From assembly GCF_003334355.1 (NCBI RefSeq), contig NZ_QOWP01000001.1: 64,000 nt of DNA; one strand, 5' to 3'. A program made the position numbers and the translations under genes. Every line of letters begins with the position of its first letter. Within the stretch, counting starts at the first letter, position 1. The notes under the pieces are model-generated. The model was not told the origin of the DNA. It ran no database searches and worked only from the letters and a program-made list of their open reading frames with translations. Origin of the DNA: Escherichia coli. Lineage in GTDB: Bacteria > Pseudomonadota > Gammaproteobacteria > Enterobacterales > Enterobacteriaceae. This document shows positions 10,263 to 39,121 of this stretch, piece after piece.

Positions 10263-11405
10263 TTAAATCTGCTTTTCATACAATCGGTAACGCTTGTACG
10301 GCTCTGCCCCAATGCGTTCCAGCATGTTATTCATGCCTGTATTGGTTTCGAGGATCCATGACATCTCCAGCGCATCGATCTTCCGGCGGGCAAACGGATC
10401 GCGTAAGGCTTCAATCAATAACAGCGCAATCACCGGGCCGATGCGGCTGAACTGATACTCGTCGCGCACGCCCATCAGCGGTACTCGCGCAGTTCGCACA
10501 CCGCTGACTTTCAAACGCCACAGCAATTTTGCCCAGCCGAAGGGAAAGAGCGATCCGTTCAGATCGGCAATCGCCTCGTTGATGTTCGGCAAGCCGACAA
10601 TAAACGCGCAGGGTGCAGAATCAATCTCAGCGATATAGATCATATCGTCCGGCACCAGATATTTAAGTTGATCGCCCATGGTCGCGAATTCATGTTCGGT
10701 AAACGGCACAAATCCCCAGTTGTGCTGCCAGCCAGAGTTGAAAATCTCACGCAGGATCTGCATCTCTTCGGCAAACCGCTGACGATTGATGCAGCGAATG
10801 GTCACCTTTTTGCGCACCTGATCCATCAGTTTTTTTAGCGCCGGAGAGAAAGTGAGATCGGTTCGCTGCATCCACCACGCCAGTAAATCAATGCCTTTGT
10901 GATAACCCAGTTGTTCAATATGCGCGGCATACCACGGTTTGCCGTGTGGCATCATCGCACAGGGTGGTGTGTCAAAACCTTCAATCAGTAATCCGCTTTC
11001 CTGATTGATATTCAGGCTGAAAGGCCCGCTGATCTTACTTGCACCTTGTGACTTCAACCACGCTTCCGCTACGCCAAACAACGCGGCAAAAACCTGCGGA
11101 TCATCAATGGCGTCAATCATGCCGAAATGACCGGTATCTTTGCCGTAACGCTCGCGGTGCAAGGTATCTATTTGCGCGGTAATACGCCCAACTATCTGCC
11201 CCGCTTTTTTTGCCACCCACGCCTGCCAGATGATATGGTCCGTCCCCGGATTTTTCGCAGACAAATGCTCGTTGCGTTCAATGAATAAAGGGGGTATCCA
11301 GTTTGGATCGTCGGGATAAAGTGATGACGGAAAAGCGATAAATGCCTTAAGGTCATTTTTATTAATTACTTTTTCAATTTTAATCATCAGCAGATCGCAT
11401 TCCAT
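10263..11405 (-). CDS. yghO: YghO, GNAT-fold (acyl-CoA N-acyltransferase superfamily) protein; candidate N-acyltransferase of the adjacent lipid island
   Basis: Long minus-strand ORF; the track start at 11483 is a TTG. First ATG at 11403-11405 gives MECDLLMIKIEKV...; a second candidate ATG lies at 11387. Start uncertain. Family assignment is from memory of YghO annotation, not a motif I can prove here. Confidence 0.65.
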   Translation of the reverse strand: MECDLLMIKIEKVINKNDLKAFIAFPSSLYPDDPNWIPPLFIERNEHLSAKNPGTDHIIWQAWVAKKAGQIVGRITAQIDTLHRERYGKDTGHFGMIDAIDDPQVFAALFGVAEAWLKSQGASKISGPFSLNINQESGLLIEGFDTPPCAMMPHGKPWYAAHIEQLGYHKGIDLLAWWMQRTDLTFSPALKKLMDQVRKKVTIRCINRQRFAEEMQILREIFNSGWQHNWGFVPFTEHEFATMGDQLKYLVPDDMIYIAEIDSAPCAFIVGLPNINEAIADLNGSLFPFGWAKLLWRLKVSGVRTARVPLMGVRDEYQFSRIGPVIALLLIEALRDPFARRKIDALEMSWILETNTGMNNMLERIGAEPYKRYRLYEKQI

Positions 11406-11780: not shown

Positions 11781-13502
11781 ATGTCTAATAAAATCTTTAC
11801 GCATTCCCTACCTATGCGCTATGCCGATTTTCCAACGCTGGTTGATGCTTTGGACTACGCCGCTCTGAGTAGCGCCGGAATGAATTTTTATGACAGACGT
11901 TGCCAACTTGAAGATCAACTGGAATATCAGACGTTAAAAACGCGTGCCGAAGCTGGTGCGAAGCGGTTGTTATCGCTGAACCTGAAAAAAGGCGAACGCG
12001 TGGCGCTGATTGCCGAAACGAGTAGCGGGTTCGTAGAGGCTTTTTTTGCCTGCCAGTATGCCGGCTTAGTCGCCGTCCCGTTGGCGATTCCAATGGGCGT
12101 TGGTCAGCGGGATTCCTGGAGCGCCAAATTGCAGGGTTTACTGGCAAGTTGCCAGCCCGCAGCCATTATCACTGGTGATGAGTGGTTGCCACTGGTCAAT
12201 GCCGCGACGCATGACAACCCCGAATTACATGTTTTAAGCCACGCCTGGTTTAAGGCATTACCGGAAGCCGATGTTGCGCTCCAGCGTCCAGTTCCGAACG
12301 ATATCGCCGACCTCCAGTACACCTCCGGCAGCACCCGTTTTCCCCGTGGCGTCATTATCACCCATCGCGAAGTGATGGCTAATCTACGTGCTATAAGCCA
12401 CGACGGCATTAAATTACGCCCTGGCGACCGCTGCGTCTCCTGGCTGCCTTTCTACCATGATATGGGACTGGTCGGCTTTCTCCTGACCCCCGTCGCCACG
12501 CAGCTTTCAGTAGATTATTTGCGCACTCAGGATTTTGCCATACGTCCTCTGCAATGGCTTAAATTGATCAGTAAAAATCGCGGCACCGTTTCCGTTGCGC
12601 CGCCGTTTGGCTATGAATTGTGCCAGCGCCGCGTGAATGAAAAAGATCTCGCTGAACTGGATCTTTCCTGCTGGCGCGTCGCTGGTATTGGTGCAGAACC
12701 CATCTCCGCAGAACAACTCCATCAATTCGCTGAATGTTTCCGTCAGGTTAACTTTGACAATAAAACTTTCATGCCGTGCTACGGACTGGCAGAAAATGCG
12801 CTGGCTGTCAGCTTCTCTGATGAAGCCTCCGGGGTTGTGGTTAACGAAGTGGATCGCGACATCCTCGAATATCAGGGTAAAGCCGTCGCGCCGGGTGCAG
12901 AGACACGCGCCGTATCGACTTTCGTCAACTGCGGCAAAGCGTTGCCGGAACATGGTATTGAAATCCGCAATGAAGCAGGTATGCCGGTCGCGGAACGTGT
13001 GGTAGGCCATATTTGCATCTCCGGTCCCAGTCTGATGAGCGGTTACTTTGGCGACCAGGCTTCGCAAGACGAGATTGCCGCGACGGGCTGGTTAGACACC
13101 GGCGACCTCGGTTATCTGCTGGACGGTTATCTGTATGTCACCGGACGCATTAAAGATCTGATTATTATTCGTGGCCGTAATATCTGGCCGCAGGATATTG
13201 AATATATAGCGGAACAGGAACCGGAAATTCATTCTGGCGATGCGATTGCTTTTGTTACCGCCCAGGAAAAAATCATTTTGCAGATCCAGTGTCGGATCAG
13301 CGACGAAGAACGTCGCGGGCAGCTTATCCACGCGCTGGCGGCACGGATCCAAAGCGAATTTGGCGTGACCGCGGCTATCGATCTGTTGCCGCCCCACAGT
13401 ATTCCCCGAACGTCCTCCGGCAAGCCTGCCCGTGCGGAAGCGAAAAAACGTTATCAGAAGGCTTATGCTGCCAGTCTTAATGTGCAGGAATCCCTGGCAT
13501 GA
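11781..13502 (+). CDS. Fatty acyl-AMP ligase / acyl-ACP synthetase (AMP-binding adenylate-forming family)
   Basis: Adenylation motifs YTSGSTRFPRGV, YGLAEN, DTGDLGY and GRIKDLIIIRGRNIWPQDIE; C-terminal SGKPARAE. Track start 11754 is TTG; first ATG is 11781 (MSNKIF), start uncertain. Stop overlaps next gene start (ATGA at 13499-13502). Confidence 0.8.
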   Translation: MSNKIFTHSLPMRYADFPTLVDALDYAALSSAGMNFYDRRCQLEDQLEYQTLKTRAEAGAKRLLSLNLKKGERVALIAETSSGFVEAFFACQYAGLVAVPLAIPMGVGQRDSWSAKLQGLLASCQPAAIITGDEWLPLVNAATHDNPELHVLSHAWFKALPEADVALQRPVPNDIADLQYTSGSTRFPRGVIITHREVMANLRAISHDGIKLRPGDRCVSWLPFYHDMGLVGFLLTPVATQLSVDYLRTQDFAIRPLQWLKLISKNRGTVSVAPPFGYELCQRRVNEKDLAELDLSCWRVAGIGAEPISAEQLHQFAECFRQVNFDNKTFMPCYGLAENALAVSFSDEASGVVVNEVDRDILEYQGKAVAPGAETRAVSTFVNCGKALPEHGIEIRNEAGMPVAERVVGHICISGPSLMSGYFGDQASQDEIAATGWLDTGDLGYLLDGYLYVTGRIKDLIIIRGRNIWPQDIEYIAEQEPEIHSGDAIAFVTAQEKIILQIQCRISDEERRGQLIHALAARIQSEFGVTAAIDLLPPHSIPRTSSGKPARAEAKKRYQKAYAASLNVQESLA

Positions 13503-14413
13503 ATCAAACTGTCGCGGTGACGGGCGCTACCGGGTTTATCGGTAAATATATTATCGATAACCTGCTCGCCCGCGGCTTTCACGTTCGCGCATTGACGCGT
13601 ACTGCCCGCGCTCACGTCAATGATAATCTCACCTGGGTGCGCGGTTCGCTGGAAGATACTCATTCACTTAGCGAGCTGGTTGCCGGAGCCAGCGTAGTGG
13701 TCCATTGCGCCGGGCAAGTGCGCGGGCACAAAGAAGAGATTTTCACCCGCTGTAACGTTGACGGCAGCCTGCGCCTGATGCAAGCAGCAAAAGAGAGCGG
13801 CTTTTGCCAACGTTTTCTGTTTATCTCTTCGCTGGCGGCGCGCCATCCCGAGCTCTCCTGGTATGCAAAATCCAAATACGTCGCCGAGCAACGACTGGCA
13901 GCAATGGCGGACGAAATTACGCTGGGCGTTTTTCGCCCGACAGCCGTGTATGGTCCCGGCGATAAAGAGTTAAAACCGCTGTTTGACTGGATGCTGCGCG
14001 GCCTGCTGCCACGACTTGGTGCGCCAGATACACAGCTCTCTTTTCTGCACGTCACCGATTTCGCGCAAGCAGTGGGTCAGTGGTTAAGCGCCGAAACTAT
14101 ACAGACGCAAACCTATGAATTATGCGATGGCGTCGCCGGCGGCTATGACTGGCAACGCGTACAGCAACTTGCCGCCGACGCCCGTTGCGGTTCCGTGCGA
14201 ATGGTTGGCATTCCTCTGCCGGTACTCACCGGCCTTGCGGATATCAGTACCGCGTTGAGTCGCCTGGCAGGTAAAGAACCTATGCTGACCCGCTCGAAAA
14301 TTCGTGAATTAACCCACGCCGACTGGTCGGCAAGTAATAACCGTATTTCTGAAGATATTAATTGGTTTCCCGGGATTAGCCTGGAACACGCATTACGCAA
14401 CGGGCTATTTTGA
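13499..14413 (+). CDS. NAD(P)-dependent epimerase/dehydratase-family (extended SDR) protein; candidate keto-reductase
   Basis: N-terminal Rossmann motif VAVTGATGFIGKYI and catalytic YAKSK (YxxxK); 304 aa; start overlaps upstream stop. Confidence 0.8.
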   Translation: MNQTVAVTGATGFIGKYIIDNLLARGFHVRALTRTARAHVNDNLTWVRGSLEDTHSLSELVAGASVVVHCAGQVRGHKEEIFTRCNVDGSLRLMQAAKESGFCQRFLFISSLAARHPELSWYAKSKYVAEQRLAAMADEITLGVFRPTAVYGPGDKELKPLFDWMLRGLLPRLGAPDTQLSFLHVTDFAQAVGQWLSAETIQTQTYELCDGVAGGYDWQRVQQLAADARCGSVRMVGIPLPVLTGLADISTALSRLAGKEPMLTRSKIRELTHADWSASNNRISEDINWFPGISLEHALRNGLF

Positions 14414-14444: not shown

Positions 14445-14693
14445 ATGGTAAATCGTGAAATAGTAATGGATTACATCCTTTCCTGTTTACAGGATTTGGT
14501 CGAAAACGGTGTGGAAATTAAGCCCGACAGCGATCTCGTCAACGATCTTGGCCTGGAGTCGATCAAAGTGATGGATCTCTTAATGATGCTGGAAGACAGA
14601 TTCGATATTTCCATTCCTATTAATATTCTGCTGGATGTCAAAACCCCTGCGCAATTAATGGAAACTCTACTTCCATGGCTGGAGAATAAATAA
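14445..14693 (+). CDS. Acyl carrier protein (stand-alone, pathway-dedicated)
   Basis: 82-aa acidic protein with phosphopantetheine-site-like motif DLGLESIKVMDLLMMLEDRF (ACP consensus DLGxDSLxxVEL); stop overlaps next start (TAATG at 14691-14695). Confidence 0.7.
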   Translation: MVNREIVMDYILSCLQDLVENGVEIKPDSDLVNDLGLESIKVMDLLMMLEDRFDISIPINILLDVKTPAQLMETLLPWLENK

Positions 14694-15865
14694 TGGGGCT
14701 ATACGATAAATATGCGCGCCTTGCTGGCGAGCGACTGCAATTTAGTGACAACGGGTTAACACCGTTTGGCACCTGTATTGATGAAGTGTATTCCGCCACC
14801 GAAGGCCGGATCGGCAATAAAAAAGTGATTCTGGCCGGGACCAATAATTATCTCGGTTTAACCTTTAATCATGATGCCATCAGCGAAGGTCAGGCCGCGT
14901 TAGCGGCCCAAGGTACCGGCACCACCGGTTCTCGTATGGCAAACGGCAGTTATGCGCCGCACCTGGCGTTAGAGAAAGAGATTGCCGAGTTTTTCAATCG
15001 CCCTACCGCTATCGTTTTTTCAACCGGTTATACCGCTAATTTAGGCGTCATCAGCGCACTTGCCGACCATAACGCCGTGGTGTTACTGGATGCCGACAGC
15101 CACGCCAGTATTTATGACGCCTGTTCTCTCGGTGGCGCGGAAATTATTCGTTTCCGCCATAACGATGCTAAAGATCTGGAACGGCGCATGGTTCGCCTCG
15201 GTGAACGGGCGAAAGAGGCGATTATCATCGTTGAGGGTATCTACAGCATGCTCGGTGACGTTGCGCCGTTAGCGGAAATTGTTGATATCAAACGTCGTCT
15301 CGGTGGTTATTTGATTGTCGATGAAGCGCATTCGTTTGGCGTGTTAGGCGCAACGGGGCGCGGACTGGCTGAAGCTGTCGGCGTTGAAGATGATGTGGAT
15401 ATTATCGTTGGCACCTTCAGTAAAAGTCTGGCCTCGATTGGCGGTTTTGCTGTCGGTTCGGAAGCGATGGAAGTGCTGCGCTACGGCAGCCGCCCGTATA
15501 TTTTTACCGCCTCTCCTTCTCCGTCCTGCATTGCGACCGTGCGCTCGTCGTTAAGAACTATTGCCACACAACCAGAGCTGCGGCAAAAGCTGATGGATAA
15601 TGCCAACCATCTGTATGACGGTCTGCAAAAACTGGGTTATGAGTTAAGTTCACATATTAGCCCGGTAGTGCCGGTAATAATCGGTTCGAAAGAGGACGGT
15701 TTACGCATCTGGCGCGAGCTTATTTCGCTGGGCGTTTATGTGAATCTTATCCTGCCACCTGCCGCGCCTGCAGGCATCACGCTGCTGCGCTGTAGCGTAA
15801 ACGCTGCTCACAGTCGTGAGCAAATCGATGCCATCATTCAGGCATTTGCTACTCTGAAGCAGTAA
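14693..15865 (+). CDS. PLP-dependent alpha-oxoamine synthase, serine-palmitoyltransferase-like
   Basis: 390 aa; PLP-lysine motif VGTFSKSLASIGGF (GTFSKS...GG is the Spt-type variant; BioF and Kbl have GTLSKA / GTLGKA); also DEAHS and glycine-rich TGTTGSR segments typical of the fold. Confidence 0.85.
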   Translation: MGLYDKYARLAGERLQFSDNGLTPFGTCIDEVYSATEGRIGNKKVILAGTNNYLGLTFNHDAISEGQAALAAQGTGTTGSRMANGSYAPHLALEKEIAEFFNRPTAIVFSTGYTANLGVISALADHNAVVLLDADSHASIYDACSLGGAEIIRFRHNDAKDLERRMVRLGERAKEAIIIVEGIYSMLGDVAPLAEIVDIKRRLGGYLIVDEAHSFGVLGATGRGLAEAVGVEDDVDIIVGTFSKSLASIGGFAVGSEAMEVLRYGSRPYIFTASPSPSCIATVRSSLRTIATQPELRQKLMDNANHLYDGLQKLGYELSSHISPVVPVIIGSKEDGLRIWRELISLGVYVNLILPPAAPAGITLLRCSVNAAHSREQIDAIIQAFATLKQ

Positions 15866-15871
15866 TGTGAG

Positions 15872-15905
15872 CCCGCCGTGGTGTTGCGCCACGGCGGGTT
15901 TAATG
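15872..15905. terminator. Bidirectional intrinsic terminator between convergent operons
   Basis: Stem cccgccgtgg / ccacggcggg (15872-15898) followed by ttt, lying exactly between the stop of the Spt-like gene (15863-15865) and the convergent LptG-like stop (15900-15902). Confidence 0.5.
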
Positions 15906-16979
15906 TTGTCTGTCATACCAATACACCAGGCTCAACGCCACCAGCACAAACGCTATCGGTAAACCGAGCGCGGTAACAGGTGCGCTCAACGCAAATAGCA
16001 ATCCCAGATTGACCATGATTTGATAGCTGATCCAGGTGAGTAAGCCAACGATGACACCTACAGCGAGACGGCTACCCATCCCTGGCGAGCGCGGGGCGCT
16101 AAAGGTAAACGGCACAGCCAGCAAAATCATCGCCAGGGTCAGGATGGGTTGCCCCAGTTTTTCCCACAGTGCAAGGCGGTATTCGCTGCTGGGTTGCCCG
16201 GTTTCCTGCAAATAATGGATGTAATGATTAAGCTAACGGACAGAAAAAGTATTGCCCGGCATTGATAACTCTTCAAGATCCATACTGGTGAAGGCCGATT
16301 GCCAGGCAAGATTATCTAATGTTTCCAGCGTTTCTTTGCCATTCAGCCATTTTTTATGATTCACACCATGCAGGATCCACGTTTTGTCGTCTTCAATGGT
16401 GGCACTGCGTGCATAAATGTAGGATTCGAGCGAGAGATCGTCGCGATAATGAAAAATCTCCACGCCCACCGGCTGGCCCTGCTCGTTCAGCGATTTCACC
16501 GTCACAAATTCATTACCACGCCTGGCCCACAGCATATTGCCGGTAATGTCATCGTCCTCCCCCAACGCGGTGGCGGTCGATTTGATTTGCAACGCCTGTT
16601 GCTGTAATGGCGACGCTACCCACTCATCTATCGCGCCTAACGAAACAGTCCACAATATCCCTGCAACCAGCGCCACCAGTGCAATACGGAAGATAGAAAA
16701 CCCCATGCTGCGAATGGCGGTAAGCTCACTGTTTTTCGATAACTGCCCCAGGCCGACAATCCCTCCCAATAAGGCGATAAATGGCGAAAGTTCGACCAGT
16801 GTGCGCGGTAAGGTCATTAGCACCACCAGCACCGCCTGAGTCCAGCGATAACCGCCCGGGCTGACATCATCCAGTTCGTTAATCAGGTTGAAGGTGGTAA
16901 AAAGCGGCAGCAATAGCCCTGCGGCGGCGGCAAAACCGAGAAAGAGATGACGGATTAAATAGCGGCTGAAAACATTCAT
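15900..16979 (-). pseudogene. LptG-like (YjgP/YjgQ family) permease interrupted by a single in-frame TAG
   Basis: ORFs 16233..17060 (N-part; ATG at 16979, MNVFSRYLIRHLFLGF...) and 15900..16211 (C-part, ...YRLALWEKLGQPILTLAMILLAVPF...) are in the same frame, separated only by TAG at 16233-16235. Together they give a ~360-codon LptG-type reading frame. Confidence 0.65.
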
Positions 16980-18046
16980 CGGGAAAATTTCTGCAGCAAA
17001 GAGAAGTCGCGTGCGACCAGCATCAGCAGGCCCATTAGCATGAGTCCGGGTACTAACCACAAACCAGGAATGAGGGGAATCGCGCCGTTAGCCACCAGCG
17101 TACGGCAGACGTCACCGCCATAAAAAATGGCAATAAACAGCAACGTCAGTGGCAATAACGTTGAAAATCGCCCTTGCCGCGGTTTTACCCGACTTAATGA
17201 AATGGCCAGCAGCGCCATCAACAATGCGGTCAGGCCACGGCTTTGCCGCCATTGCAGTTCGGCATGATCGGCCGGAAAGACGGAGCGCGCCAGCTCCGTG
17301 ACCGATTTTGCTTTGCGTTTGACGTTAGGGCTTTGATCCAGCGGATTCAGATGTAATTGCAGATTACGGTAGATCTGTTCGTTGTCGTCACGCCCCTGAT
17401 GATCGAGAAGATAGGCGGTGCCGTTGTGCAACATAACGGTCGGTTTCTCGGGAGATGGGTCAACCACATCAACCGAACGGGCACGGAAAATGCGGGTTCG
17501 ATTGGCAGTAGAAGTATAAATCAGCGCGTCAGTCAGGCGATTATTATCCTGATCAACCGTCTGCGAAAGGATCATTCGTCCGTTATCGTTAGTGTTAAAT
17601 TTCTTTGCCCGCAACTGGCGAACATCCAGCTCCGACTGCGACTGCTGCTCCAGTTGATAAATCTGCGCATAAGCCCACGGACGACCATACATCGACAGAA
17701 GGGTGACAAAAATACTTAGCGGTATCGCCAGATAAAGAACGGCTTTGTACAAGCGTCCCGGACTGCCCCCCGCCGCAGAGATAGCGGTAATTTCCGAGTC
17801 GGTATACATCTGCCCTAGCGTCACGCCAACTGACACATACAGACCAACAGGTAACAACATCTCCAGTGCAATCAGCACTTTGTAGAAAACGATATCCAGC
17901 ACAACATCAAGAGCTAATGTCCCATTTGCCGCTTCGGTCAGATAACGCTGTGAGGAGTAGCTGGCGAAAATAAAGATCAGAAAACCGACGATAATCAGCA
18001 CCAGACGGCGCGTACCACGCATGATGTAGTGTTCAACCAGCTTCAT
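16976..18046 (-). CDS. LptF-like (YjgP/YjgQ family) permease paralog
   Basis: 356-aa membrane protein; MYTDSEITAISAAGGSPGRLYK and SRVKPRQGRFSTLLP resemble LptF LYTESEIT / NPRQGR motifs; stop overlaps LptG-like start (ATGA at 16976-16979). Confidence 0.8.
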   Translation of the reverse strand: MKLVEHYIMRGTRRLVLIIVGFLIFIFASYSSQRYLTEAANGTLALDVVLDIVFYKVLIALEMLLPVGLYVSVGVTLGQMYTDSEITAISAAGGSPGRLYKAVLYLAIPLSIFVTLLSMYGRPWAYAQIYQLEQQSQSELDVRQLRAKKFNTNDNGRMILSQTVDQDNNRLTDALIYTSTANRTRIFRARSVDVVDPSPEKPTVMLHNGTAYLLDHQGRDDNEQIYRNLQLHLNPLDQSPNVKRKAKSVTELARSVFPADHAELQWRQSRGLTALLMALLAISLSRVKPRQGRFSTLLPLTLLFIAIFYGGDVCRTLVANGAIPLIPGLWLVPGLMLMGLLMLVARDFSLLQKFSR

Positions 18047-18076: not shown

Positions 18077-18640
18077 TTATTCATTGATCAGTTTCTGCGC
18101 CAACGCAATGACATGATCTACCTCTTCCGGCGTCAGGCTGCCGTCCTTTGCCCACTGAATTTGCCCGGCTTTATTCAGCACCAGAATGGTTGAACTCTGC
18201 TCCGGCAAGCGCCAGGCAACGCGTCCCTGTCCATTGCCGTCAATAACGAATTGCGCCCACGGATAGCGGCGTTTATTTTTTTCGATTTTGCCAACAACAA
18301 AATAGCCAGTACCAAAGATGGCATCATCGGTGTTCACAATGGTGGTGGGCTGAAAACGATCCTGCGGAAAGTTTGCCGCTTCAACCGCTTTAATTAACAG
18401 TGAGTTCTTTTTCTTCGCCGACTTACGCCCGGCGATATACTGGATAATGCGGACTTTTCCCGCCAATTGTGTGCTGTTCCACTTTTGGTAGTGAATTTCG
18501 TCGTCACTATTCAGAAGCAGCTCGCCGCCTTCCTGGATATAAACGGGGGTAACCGTTTTGCCAGTGACGAAATTGTGTGCCTGAACACCCGGGGCTAAGA
18601 GCATGATAATCAGCGCAATAATCAAACGAAATGACATCAT
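18077..18640 (-). CDS. Periplasmic YtfJ-family-like protein with signal peptide
   Basis: 187 aa, N-terminal signal peptide MMSFRLIIALIIMLLAPGVQA; central TTIVNTDDAIFGTGYF and C-terminal WAKDGSLTPEEV resemble YtfJ (from memory). Confidence 0.55.
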   Translation of the reverse strand: MMSFRLIIALIIMLLAPGVQAHNFVTGKTVTPVYIQEGGELLLNSDDEIHYQKWNSTQLAGKVRIIQYIAGRKSAKKKNSLLIKAVEAANFPQDRFQPTTIVNTDDAIFGTGYFVVGKIEKNKRRYPWAQFVIDGNGQGRVAWRLPEQSSTILVLNKAGQIQWAKDGSLTPEEVDHVIALAQKLINE

Positions 18641-39012: not shown

Positions 39013-39112
39013 TTACCTGATGTGGCGAAAACGCCTTATCCGCCTACAAACGCATGAAGATTCAACATGTTGCAATAGATTTTGTAGGCCTGATGAGCGT
39101 AGCGCATCAGGC
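39013..39112. repeat. REP/BIME element
   Basis: cgccttatccgcctac and gtaggcctgatgagcgtagcgcatcaggc palindromic REP units between yghA and exbD. Confidence 0.55.
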
Positions 39113-39121
39113 AATTCTACT

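Follow-up and report, generated by a model that had tools for sequence, protein, structure and literature searches.

The 64-kb window analysed here (64,000 nucleotides of chromosomal DNA from Escherichia coli contig NZ_QOWP01000001.1, RefSeq assembly GCF_003334355.1) carries two adjacent genes of the LptF/LptG permease family, lptF2 and lptG2, within an island that also holds the sphingolipid cluster genes yghO, aasR, cerR, acpR, spt, yghQ and yghR/S/T. LptF2 and LptG2 are probably the permeases that export the lipid made by this cluster, and they would do so via the LptB ATPase that they share with the lipopolysaccharide (LPS) system. In the window itself, lptG2 is a pseudogene and cannot form a permease pair. 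A preliminary description of this DNA, made from the letters alone, had proposed that the pair may extract or hand off the island's lipid while borrowing LptB. For the gene family this proposal holds up well, given the synteny, the conserved coupling-helix glutamates and the data from Caulobacter, but the copy in the window is truncated and the idea is not new: export by LptF2/LptG2 has already been published, with the naming in 2024 and a Caulobacter preprint in 2026. The new part is minor and consists of two lesions of this lineage, LptG2 Q249* and AasR Y166D. The elements of the pair are the following:

16976-18046, minus strand: lptF2, an intact LptF-family permease of 356 aa.
15900-16979, minus strand: lptG2, an LptG-family permease gene of 359 codons; a pseudogene in the window, and labelled 'internal stop' by the Prokaryotic Genome Annotation Pipeline (PGAP) in the sister strain PSS-12.
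16976-16979, minus strand: ATGA stop/start overlap of lptF2 and lptG2, read from the sequence and suggestive of translational coupling.
16233-16235, minus strand: in-frame TAG (Q249*) at codon 249 of lptG2.

Two adjacent minus-strand genes sharing an ATGA had been described at exactly these positions. The lptF2 frame ends in ...CGA TGA and lptG2 starts with ATG AAT, and the same 4-nt overlap is also annotated in IHE3034, strain 10159, 55989 and strain 81. Membership of the YjgP/YjgQ (LptF/LptG) family likewise stands after the profile searches that had been suggested as a check. LptF2 reaches 317 bits on NCBIfam TIGR04407 (cut-off 230) and LptG2, once Gln is put in place of the stop, 308 bits on TIGR04408 (cut-off 240); Pfam PF03739 spans the whole of LptG2 (model positions 1-352 of 353, E 1e-69), and LptF2 carries the same Pfam assignment in precomputed data. 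When compared with solved structures, both proteins match LptF/LptG chains only. An AlphaFold2 model of LptF2 (predicted local distance difference test, pLDDT, 70; predicted template modelling score, pTM, 0.62) was searched against the PDB with Foldseek, and the top 33 matches were all LptF/LptG chains with template modelling scores of ~0.63-0.67. LptF/LptG permeases have six membrane helices and, between the third and the fourth, a periplasmic beta-jellyroll; the helices of this model are confident, and four beta strands lie at residues 157-215, where pLDDT is 35-60.

The genes of lipid synthesis in the window are:

10263-11405, minus strand: yghO, N-acyltransferase ('aca', ceramide-synthase homolog), equated with aca in PMC9386255.
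11814-13502, plus strand: aasR, specialised acyl-ACP (ACP, acyl carrier protein) synthetase, a fatty acyl-AMP ligase (PGAP name), with Y166D at 12309-12311.
13499-14413, plus strand: cerR/epi, reductase (PGAP name).
14445-14693, plus strand: acpR, dedicated ACP (PGAP name).
14693-15865, plus strand: spt, serine palmitoyltransferase (PGAP name).

Along the window, glcC is followed by yghO on the minus strand, aasR-cerR-acpR-spt on the plus strand, then lptG2, lptF2, a ytfJ-like gene, hyp274, yghQ, yghR and yghS on the minus strand, and finally yghT (plus strand) and pitB. The minus-strand run yghS-yghR-yghQ-hyp274-ytfJ-like-lptF2-lptG2 is tightly packed and converges on aasR-cerR-acpR-spt, so that the pair does lie downstream of yghQ and convergent with the Spt-like operon, as had been noted. 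Co-occurrence of the pair with the lipid genes had been suggested as a check. One genome per species was scanned with an alignment of LptF2 orthologs, and the gene content of the resulting 52 loci was read from a tblastn matrix with all island proteins. In Enterobacterales, aasR-cerR-acpR-spt stands beside the pair in 40/40 loci with enough flank, the other six ending inside the island. This holds across at least four arrangements, namely an E. coli type, a Serratia/Mangrovibacter/Pantoea type, a Sodalis/Rosenbergiella type and that of Rahnella. Linkage to the lipid genes extends to five of the six distant loci, which carry yghO and/or aasR, with or without spt. Thus, in metagenome-assembled genomes of Verrucomicrobiota (L049), Deltaproteobacteria (L051) and Desulfuromonadales (L052), yghO, aasR, cerR and acpR lie directly upstream of an lptF2-like gene; an lptG2-like gene comes after it in L049 and L052, and spt is also present in L051 and L052. 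Two further loci, L053 and L054, have yghO (plus aasR in L054) directly upstream of both permease genes, and the Geobacter locus L048 is the only distant one for which the tblastn matrix gave no sphingolipid genes. Since this linkage survives rearrangement and crosses phyla, gene neighbourhood provides good evidence for a shared function of the pair and the lipid genes.

A Walker A motif and an LSGGQ-type signature never occur together in one open reading frame (ORF) of the 64 kb, and the annotation of PSS-12 across the region contains no ATP-binding cassette (ABC) ATPase, with ygiS encoding a lone binding protein; the earlier remark that the window has no such gene is therefore confirmed. Nor is there an LptB-type gene beside the pair in any of the 52 loci. 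ABC-ATPase-like ORFs in nine loci were considered as LptB and rejected, as they are peripheral or of other types. Upstream of the Geobacter pair, at L048:6968-9623, there are MacB/LolD-like and ABC-F ATPases, which are not LptB-like. The permeases themselves retain the glutamate of the coupling helix: LptF2 E85 (in TDSEIT) is found in 45/45 Enterobacterales orthologs and LptG2 E85 (in NSELT) in 44/45, and both are found in all distant orthologs. They align with LptF E84 and LptG E88, which we take to engage LptB in the LPS system. Because these glutamates are kept, an ABC partner is favoured over action without an ATPase, which the preliminary description had offered as an alternative and which the conserved coupling helices now make less attractive.

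Experiments on such a pair exist for Caulobacter crescentus. There, CC_1168, CC_1156 and CC_1155 were named LptC2, LptF2 and LptG2 as probable sphingolipid transporters (Olea-Ozuna et al., 2024; PMC11324152). According to a preprint of April 2026, deletion of lptF2, lptG2 or lptC2 succeeds only where spt or cpgB has been deleted as well, LptF2 and LptG2 purify together, and the single LptB is recovered with both of them; the preprint also draws the locus of E. coli UTI89 and places lptF2/G2 in many alpha- and gammaproteobacterial sphingolipid loci (Uchendu et al., 2026; 10.64898/2026.04.12.717747). Like the E. coli pair, Caulobacter LptF2/LptG2 (CCNA_01214/CCNA_01213; CC_1156/CC_1155) are encoded inside a sphingolipid locus that has no lptB copy, and the biosynthetic neighbours are the same in both, namely aasR, acpR, spt, epi/cerR and aca/yghO. 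E. coli is without LptC2, as lptC2 is restricted to Caulobacter according to the preprint (10.64898/2026.04.12.717747), and, unlike in Caulobacter, the Enterobacterales pair travels with a YtfJ-like secreted protein and hyp274. Caulobacter CpgB is diacylglycerol (DAG)-kinase-like, whereas E. coli has the P-loop proteins YghR/S/T instead. A pair beside sphingolipid genes is likewise found in Sphingomonas wittichii, where LptFG is proposed to move sphingolipids (10.64898/2026.04.12.717747); it is the sole LptFG of an organism without LPS, while the E. coli pair coexists with the LPS system and would share its LptB. Regarding the lipid of the E. coli cluster, co-overexpression of AasR, AcpR and SPT of E. 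coli BL21(DE3) leads to 3-oxo-sphinganine, and yghO (ECD_02850) is the homolog of the N-acyltransferase gene aca, with five dihydroceramide genes clustered in E. coli (PMC9386255).

We propose that a ceramide-type lipid would be made on the cytoplasmic side and flipped across the inner membrane, with YghQ as the candidate flippase. A heterodimer of LptF2 and LptG2 would then pull the lipid out of the outer leaflet of that membrane. The energy would come from the only LptB ATPase dimer that the cell has, bound at the conserved coupling helices, and the lipid would move on towards the outer membrane, probably via the usual Lpt bridge. For E. coli, we infer the F2-G2 complex, its binding of LptB, an essentiality that depends on synthesis, the role of YghQ and the route past the inner membrane.

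Several observations weigh against this proposal. The experiments on LptF2/LptG2 were carried out in Caulobacter, and the role in E. coli would follow by analogy. Orthology of the E. coli pair to the tested Caulobacter proteins is tentative, with indirect support from spt-linked LptF-like proteins of other phyla, which are much closer to E. coli LptF2 than to LptF; a search with the distant spt-linked LptF-like protein from L052 found only environmental proteins and did not reach Caulobacter LptF2. Among distant members, similarity scores fail to tell LptG2 and LptG apart, and we make no claim of a distinct 'LptG2 clade'. The head-group genes differ from those of Caulobacter, and the E. coli head group is probably a different one; YghR/S/T were considered as homologs of CpgB and rejected, because CpgB is DAG-kinase-like with a GGDG motif and YghR/S/T are P-loop proteins resembling dTMP kinase. 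Confidence in the LptF2 model is low for its beta-jellyroll part. In BL21(DE3), in which the locus is present, cells with empty vectors had no 3-oxo-sphinganine-like lipid (PMC9386255); the known product comes from overexpression. Finally, linking the two lesions described below as one event rests on one lineage.

The pair could instead be a second exporter of LPS or of another envelope glycolipid, such as modified lipid A or a lipid of the enterobacterial common antigen type, with the adjacency of spt being incidental. Automated annotation points this way: the equivalog cut-offs of TIGR04407 and TIGR04408 are passed, PGAP for this reason calls LptF2/LptG2 'LPS export ABC transporter permease LptF/LptG', and genomes with the island therefore seem to hold two LPS exporters. 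This naming is likely an over-annotation. We took the LPS-contact residues from the structure of Shigella LptB2FG with LPS (PMC6744409). Some of them fit an LPS-like substrate, in that the positions of LptG K62 and R136 and of LptF R33 and K317 stay basic (LptF2 R34 and R315 and LptG2 R59 and K133 in the window). LptG R133 is not conserved (Leu in the window LptG2), and neither are LptF K322 and R263 in LptF2. The first transmembrane helix of LptG contributes K34, K40 and K41, which bind the lipid A phosphates and the inner core in the LPS system; these are N31, D37 and D38 in the window LptG2. Orthologs of LptG2 naturally have N, D or T at the K34 position, D or E at the K40 position and D at the K41 position, and distant members have E in place of K34; K34E in LptG is lethal for LPS export (PMC6744409). 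Judged from the alignment, these residues suggest a cavity that is lipid-like with some positive charge and not built for bis-phosphorylated lipid A. Moreover, the linkage with aasR-cerR-acpR-spt outlasts at least four rearrangements and crosses phyla, and ~24% of E. coli genomes, K-12 among them, are without the pair and have no LPS defect. Altogether, we hold a second LPS or glycolipid exporter to be very unlikely. It is quite unlikely, too, that the pair acts independently of LptB, either with no ATP or with another nucleoside triphosphatase such as YghR/YghS/YghT. The lack of an ABC ATPase in the locus would agree with this, as would the three P-loop genes that accompany the pair in most Enterobacterales loci. 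YghR/S/T, however, are without the ABC signature motif and resemble small-molecule kinases, and they were absent by tblastn from the available flanks of the Sodalis/Rosenbergiella-type loci; the coupling-helix glutamates of both subunits are almost invariant, and Caulobacter LptF2/G2 pull down LptB (10.64898/2026.04.12.717747).

Export of the cluster's lipid via LptB remains the preferred role of the intact pair. In E. coli LptB2FGC, LptF (b4261) and LptG (b4262) belong to the same Pfam and NCBIfam families over their full length and share the conserved coupling-helix glutamate, and the model of LptF2 matches LptF/LptG chains; their genes, like lptF2-lptG2, are adjacent, F then G, with overlapping stop and start. 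Unlike canonical LptFG, LptF2/LptG2 are non-essential and missing from about one quarter of E. coli genomes. Canonical lptF-lptG adjoin pepA in K-12, and so map elsewhere, as had been stated, whereas lptF2/lptG2 lie in a lipid-synthesis island. The preliminary description had named a recent duplication of core lptFG as something that would speak against it. This is not the case, because LptF2 is only 30% identical to LptF of K-12 and LptG2 only 28% identical to LptG; judged by sequence, the two are ancient paralogs. They score no higher against LptF/LptG of E. coli/Shigella than against the Pseudomonas or Vibrio proteins, and the distant spt-linked LptF-like proteins give 171-197 bits against E. 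coli LptF2 compared with 70-74 bits against E. coli LptF.

In the window, the pair is broken. The preliminary description had rightly recognised both an LptF-like and an LptG-like gene but missed the in-frame TAG that truncates the latter at codon 249. The ORF list gives lptG2 in two pieces of the same frame, 16233-17060 and 15900-16211, split by this codon. Q249* removes the C-terminal 110 residues, which correspond in alignment to the final three membrane helices of LptG. Apart from PSS-12, every relative compared is without the TAG, and the codon is CAG in loci L039, L005 and L006. Of 5,426 complete E. coli genomes, one, that of PSS-12, has the exact 57-mer with TAG, and the CAG version is found exactly in 885. 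From cerR through acpR and spt to lptG2, the window differs from strain 81, which has the next-nearest island, by the stop-creating C-to-T alone. PSS-12 is the nearest complete genome, with 12 substitutions in 33.4 kb, and represents a sister strain with a separate sequence: the left end of the window (1-614) has no match to PSS-12, where an IS1 element sits, and a short insertion or deletion separates the two near 39.1 kb (~39030-39113). Being common to two separate sequences, Q249* is a real mutation of this lineage.

A second change concerns the first step of synthesis. AasR Y166D lies within the adenylation motif DIA-Y-LQYTSGST and is also common to the window and PSS-12. Position 166 is invariant, with Tyr in 44/44 orthologs; the Asp allele occurs in PSS-12 only among the 5,426 complete genomes, and the Tyr allele is found exactly in 2,953. 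Eight of the 12 differences between the window and PSS-12 fall inside the 13-kb island (Fisher p = 0.07). Among the seven island coding differences, five are non-synonymous, with YghO S187F, LptG2 E266A (downstream of the stop) and YghR R54C on the side of PSS-12 and AasR M243I and YtfJ-like S3F on that of the window; for comparison, the non-synonymous share among the coding differences that separate the window from strain 81 is ~23%. These counts do no more than hint at relaxed selection across the whole island in the lineage, as very recent polymorphisms are often enriched for non-synonymous changes. Since Q249* and Y166D are both common to PSS-12, and considering the differences in the island, the pathway seems to have been switched off in this lineage and to be drifting.

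A lineage with LptG2 Q249* and AasR Y166D fits the rule known from Caulobacter, that the exporter is lost only when synthesis is off, although it is one lineage. By analogy, the two could form a natural suppressor pair, in which the loss of the exporter made the lipid toxic within the inner membrane and thereby selected for a block of the first step, or in which the order was the reverse. We regard this as doubtful. If it were true, the E. coli island would be expressed in nature, and LptF2G2 would be an obligatory export route that shares LptB with LPS. The decay could also be read more broadly, with the E. coli island as a silent relic, the pair as having no present function and the window as showing one step of the decay. 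That no native sphingolipid was seen in BL21(DE3) (PMC9386255) would agree with this, and so would the deletions mediated by insertion sequences (IS) in the K-12-like lineage and in 55989, as well as the nonsense codon and the invariant-site change found here. It is nonetheless unlikely. Both genes have dN/dS (non-synonymous to synonymous substitution rate) values of 0.04-0.12 within Escherichia and across genera (other Escherichia, Pseudocitrobacter, Citrobacter and Pluralibacter), which points to strong purifying selection. Reading frames are uninterrupted in other species' loci (51/51 for LptG2, 51/52 for LptF2), the whole 13-kb island is kept in 4,052/5,426 complete E. coli genomes, and IHE3034, strain 10159 and strain 81 each have all 13 of its genes in intact form. 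Lastly, the TAG codon might be an assembly error or might be read through, for instance by a Gln-inserting amber suppressor, with the pair then being functional in this strain. It is indeed a single C-to-T in an otherwise identical sequence, and a Gln inserted at UAG would bring back the wild-type residue. However, the independent assembly of PSS-12 has this TAG as well, in spite of the 12 substitutions and structural differences that set it apart, and PSS-12 has acquired the further missense change E266A downstream of the stop. Amber suppressors are rare in natural isolates, which also counts against read-through. We therefore consider error or read-through extremely unlikely.

For E. coli as a whole, these data mean that most strains other than K-12 possess a complete sphingolipid cluster along with an LptFG-type extractor of its own. 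If the cluster is active, the outer membrane would gain a second lipid, and this lipid and LPS would be rivals for the LptB motor, a point that would matter for envelope biology and for drugs aimed at the Lpt system. The value of the present analysis lies in confirmation, in comparative support from Enterobacterales, in candidate specificity residues of LptG2 and in a warning on the automated naming of LPS exporters.

The remaining features of the island surround the pair:

15868-15902, strand not applicable: GC-rich hairpin between the convergent spt and lptG2, likely a two-way terminator.
18077-18637, minus strand: ytfJ-like, a secreted YtfJ-family protein of 186 aa (TIGR01626, 211 bits; signal-peptide-like N terminus).
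18649-19473, minus strand: hyp274, a conserved 274-aa protein linked to lptF2/lptG2 in most Enterobacterales loci.
19473-20822, minus strand: yghQ, a MOP-family flippase-like membrane protein of 449 aa (weak NF007773 match).
20868-22371, minus strand: yghR and yghS, P-loop proteins resembling dTMP kinase (Walker A motifs; weak TIGR00041 match for YghR; PGAP names).
22545-23237, plus strand: yghT, a third P-loop paralog, divergent from yghS.

The hairpin has a 16-pair GC-rich stem that fills the 34-nt gap between spt and lptG2. Its folding energy is -22.7 kcal/mol (z -3.8; 0/200 shuffles fold as well), and it is probably a terminator for both directions. A promoter scan gave 15 sites against 15.8 expected in shuffled sequence, and we claim no promoter. 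Searches of hyp274 against Pfam and NCBIfam gave no match. PGAP labels yghQ as a 'lipopolysaccharide biosynthesis protein', and the gene is linked to lptF2/lptG2 in other genera as well. While Enterobacterales have this MOP-type protein nearby, L054 has a fused MsbA/PglK-type ABC exporter directly after the lptG2-like gene (L054:12008-13768), which may be an alternative flippase. The YtfJ-like gene is linked to lptF2/lptG2 in 45/46 Enterobacterales loci, and its product could stand in, as a candidate periplasmic partner, for LptC2, which is confined to Caulobacter.

Within E. coli, the pair is present in 4,106/5,426 complete genomes and absent from 1,294 (~24%), the K-12 lineage included. In the K-12-like lineage (L059, strain CAR, 1672-3866), an IS5 stands in place of aasR through the 3' part of yghQ. 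In strain 55989 (L058, 1658-3079), an IS1 deletion extends from the 3' end of glcC through most of acpR, and spt and lptF2G2 are kept without the upstream biosynthetic genes. The two losses are independent IS-mediated deletions. The synonymous divergence (dS) of lptF2/lptG2 amounts to 0.24-0.49 against another 'E. coli' (L039) and to 0.53-0.67 against Escherichia sp. E1V33 (L010), which suggests deeply diverged alleles of the island or recombination at the locus.

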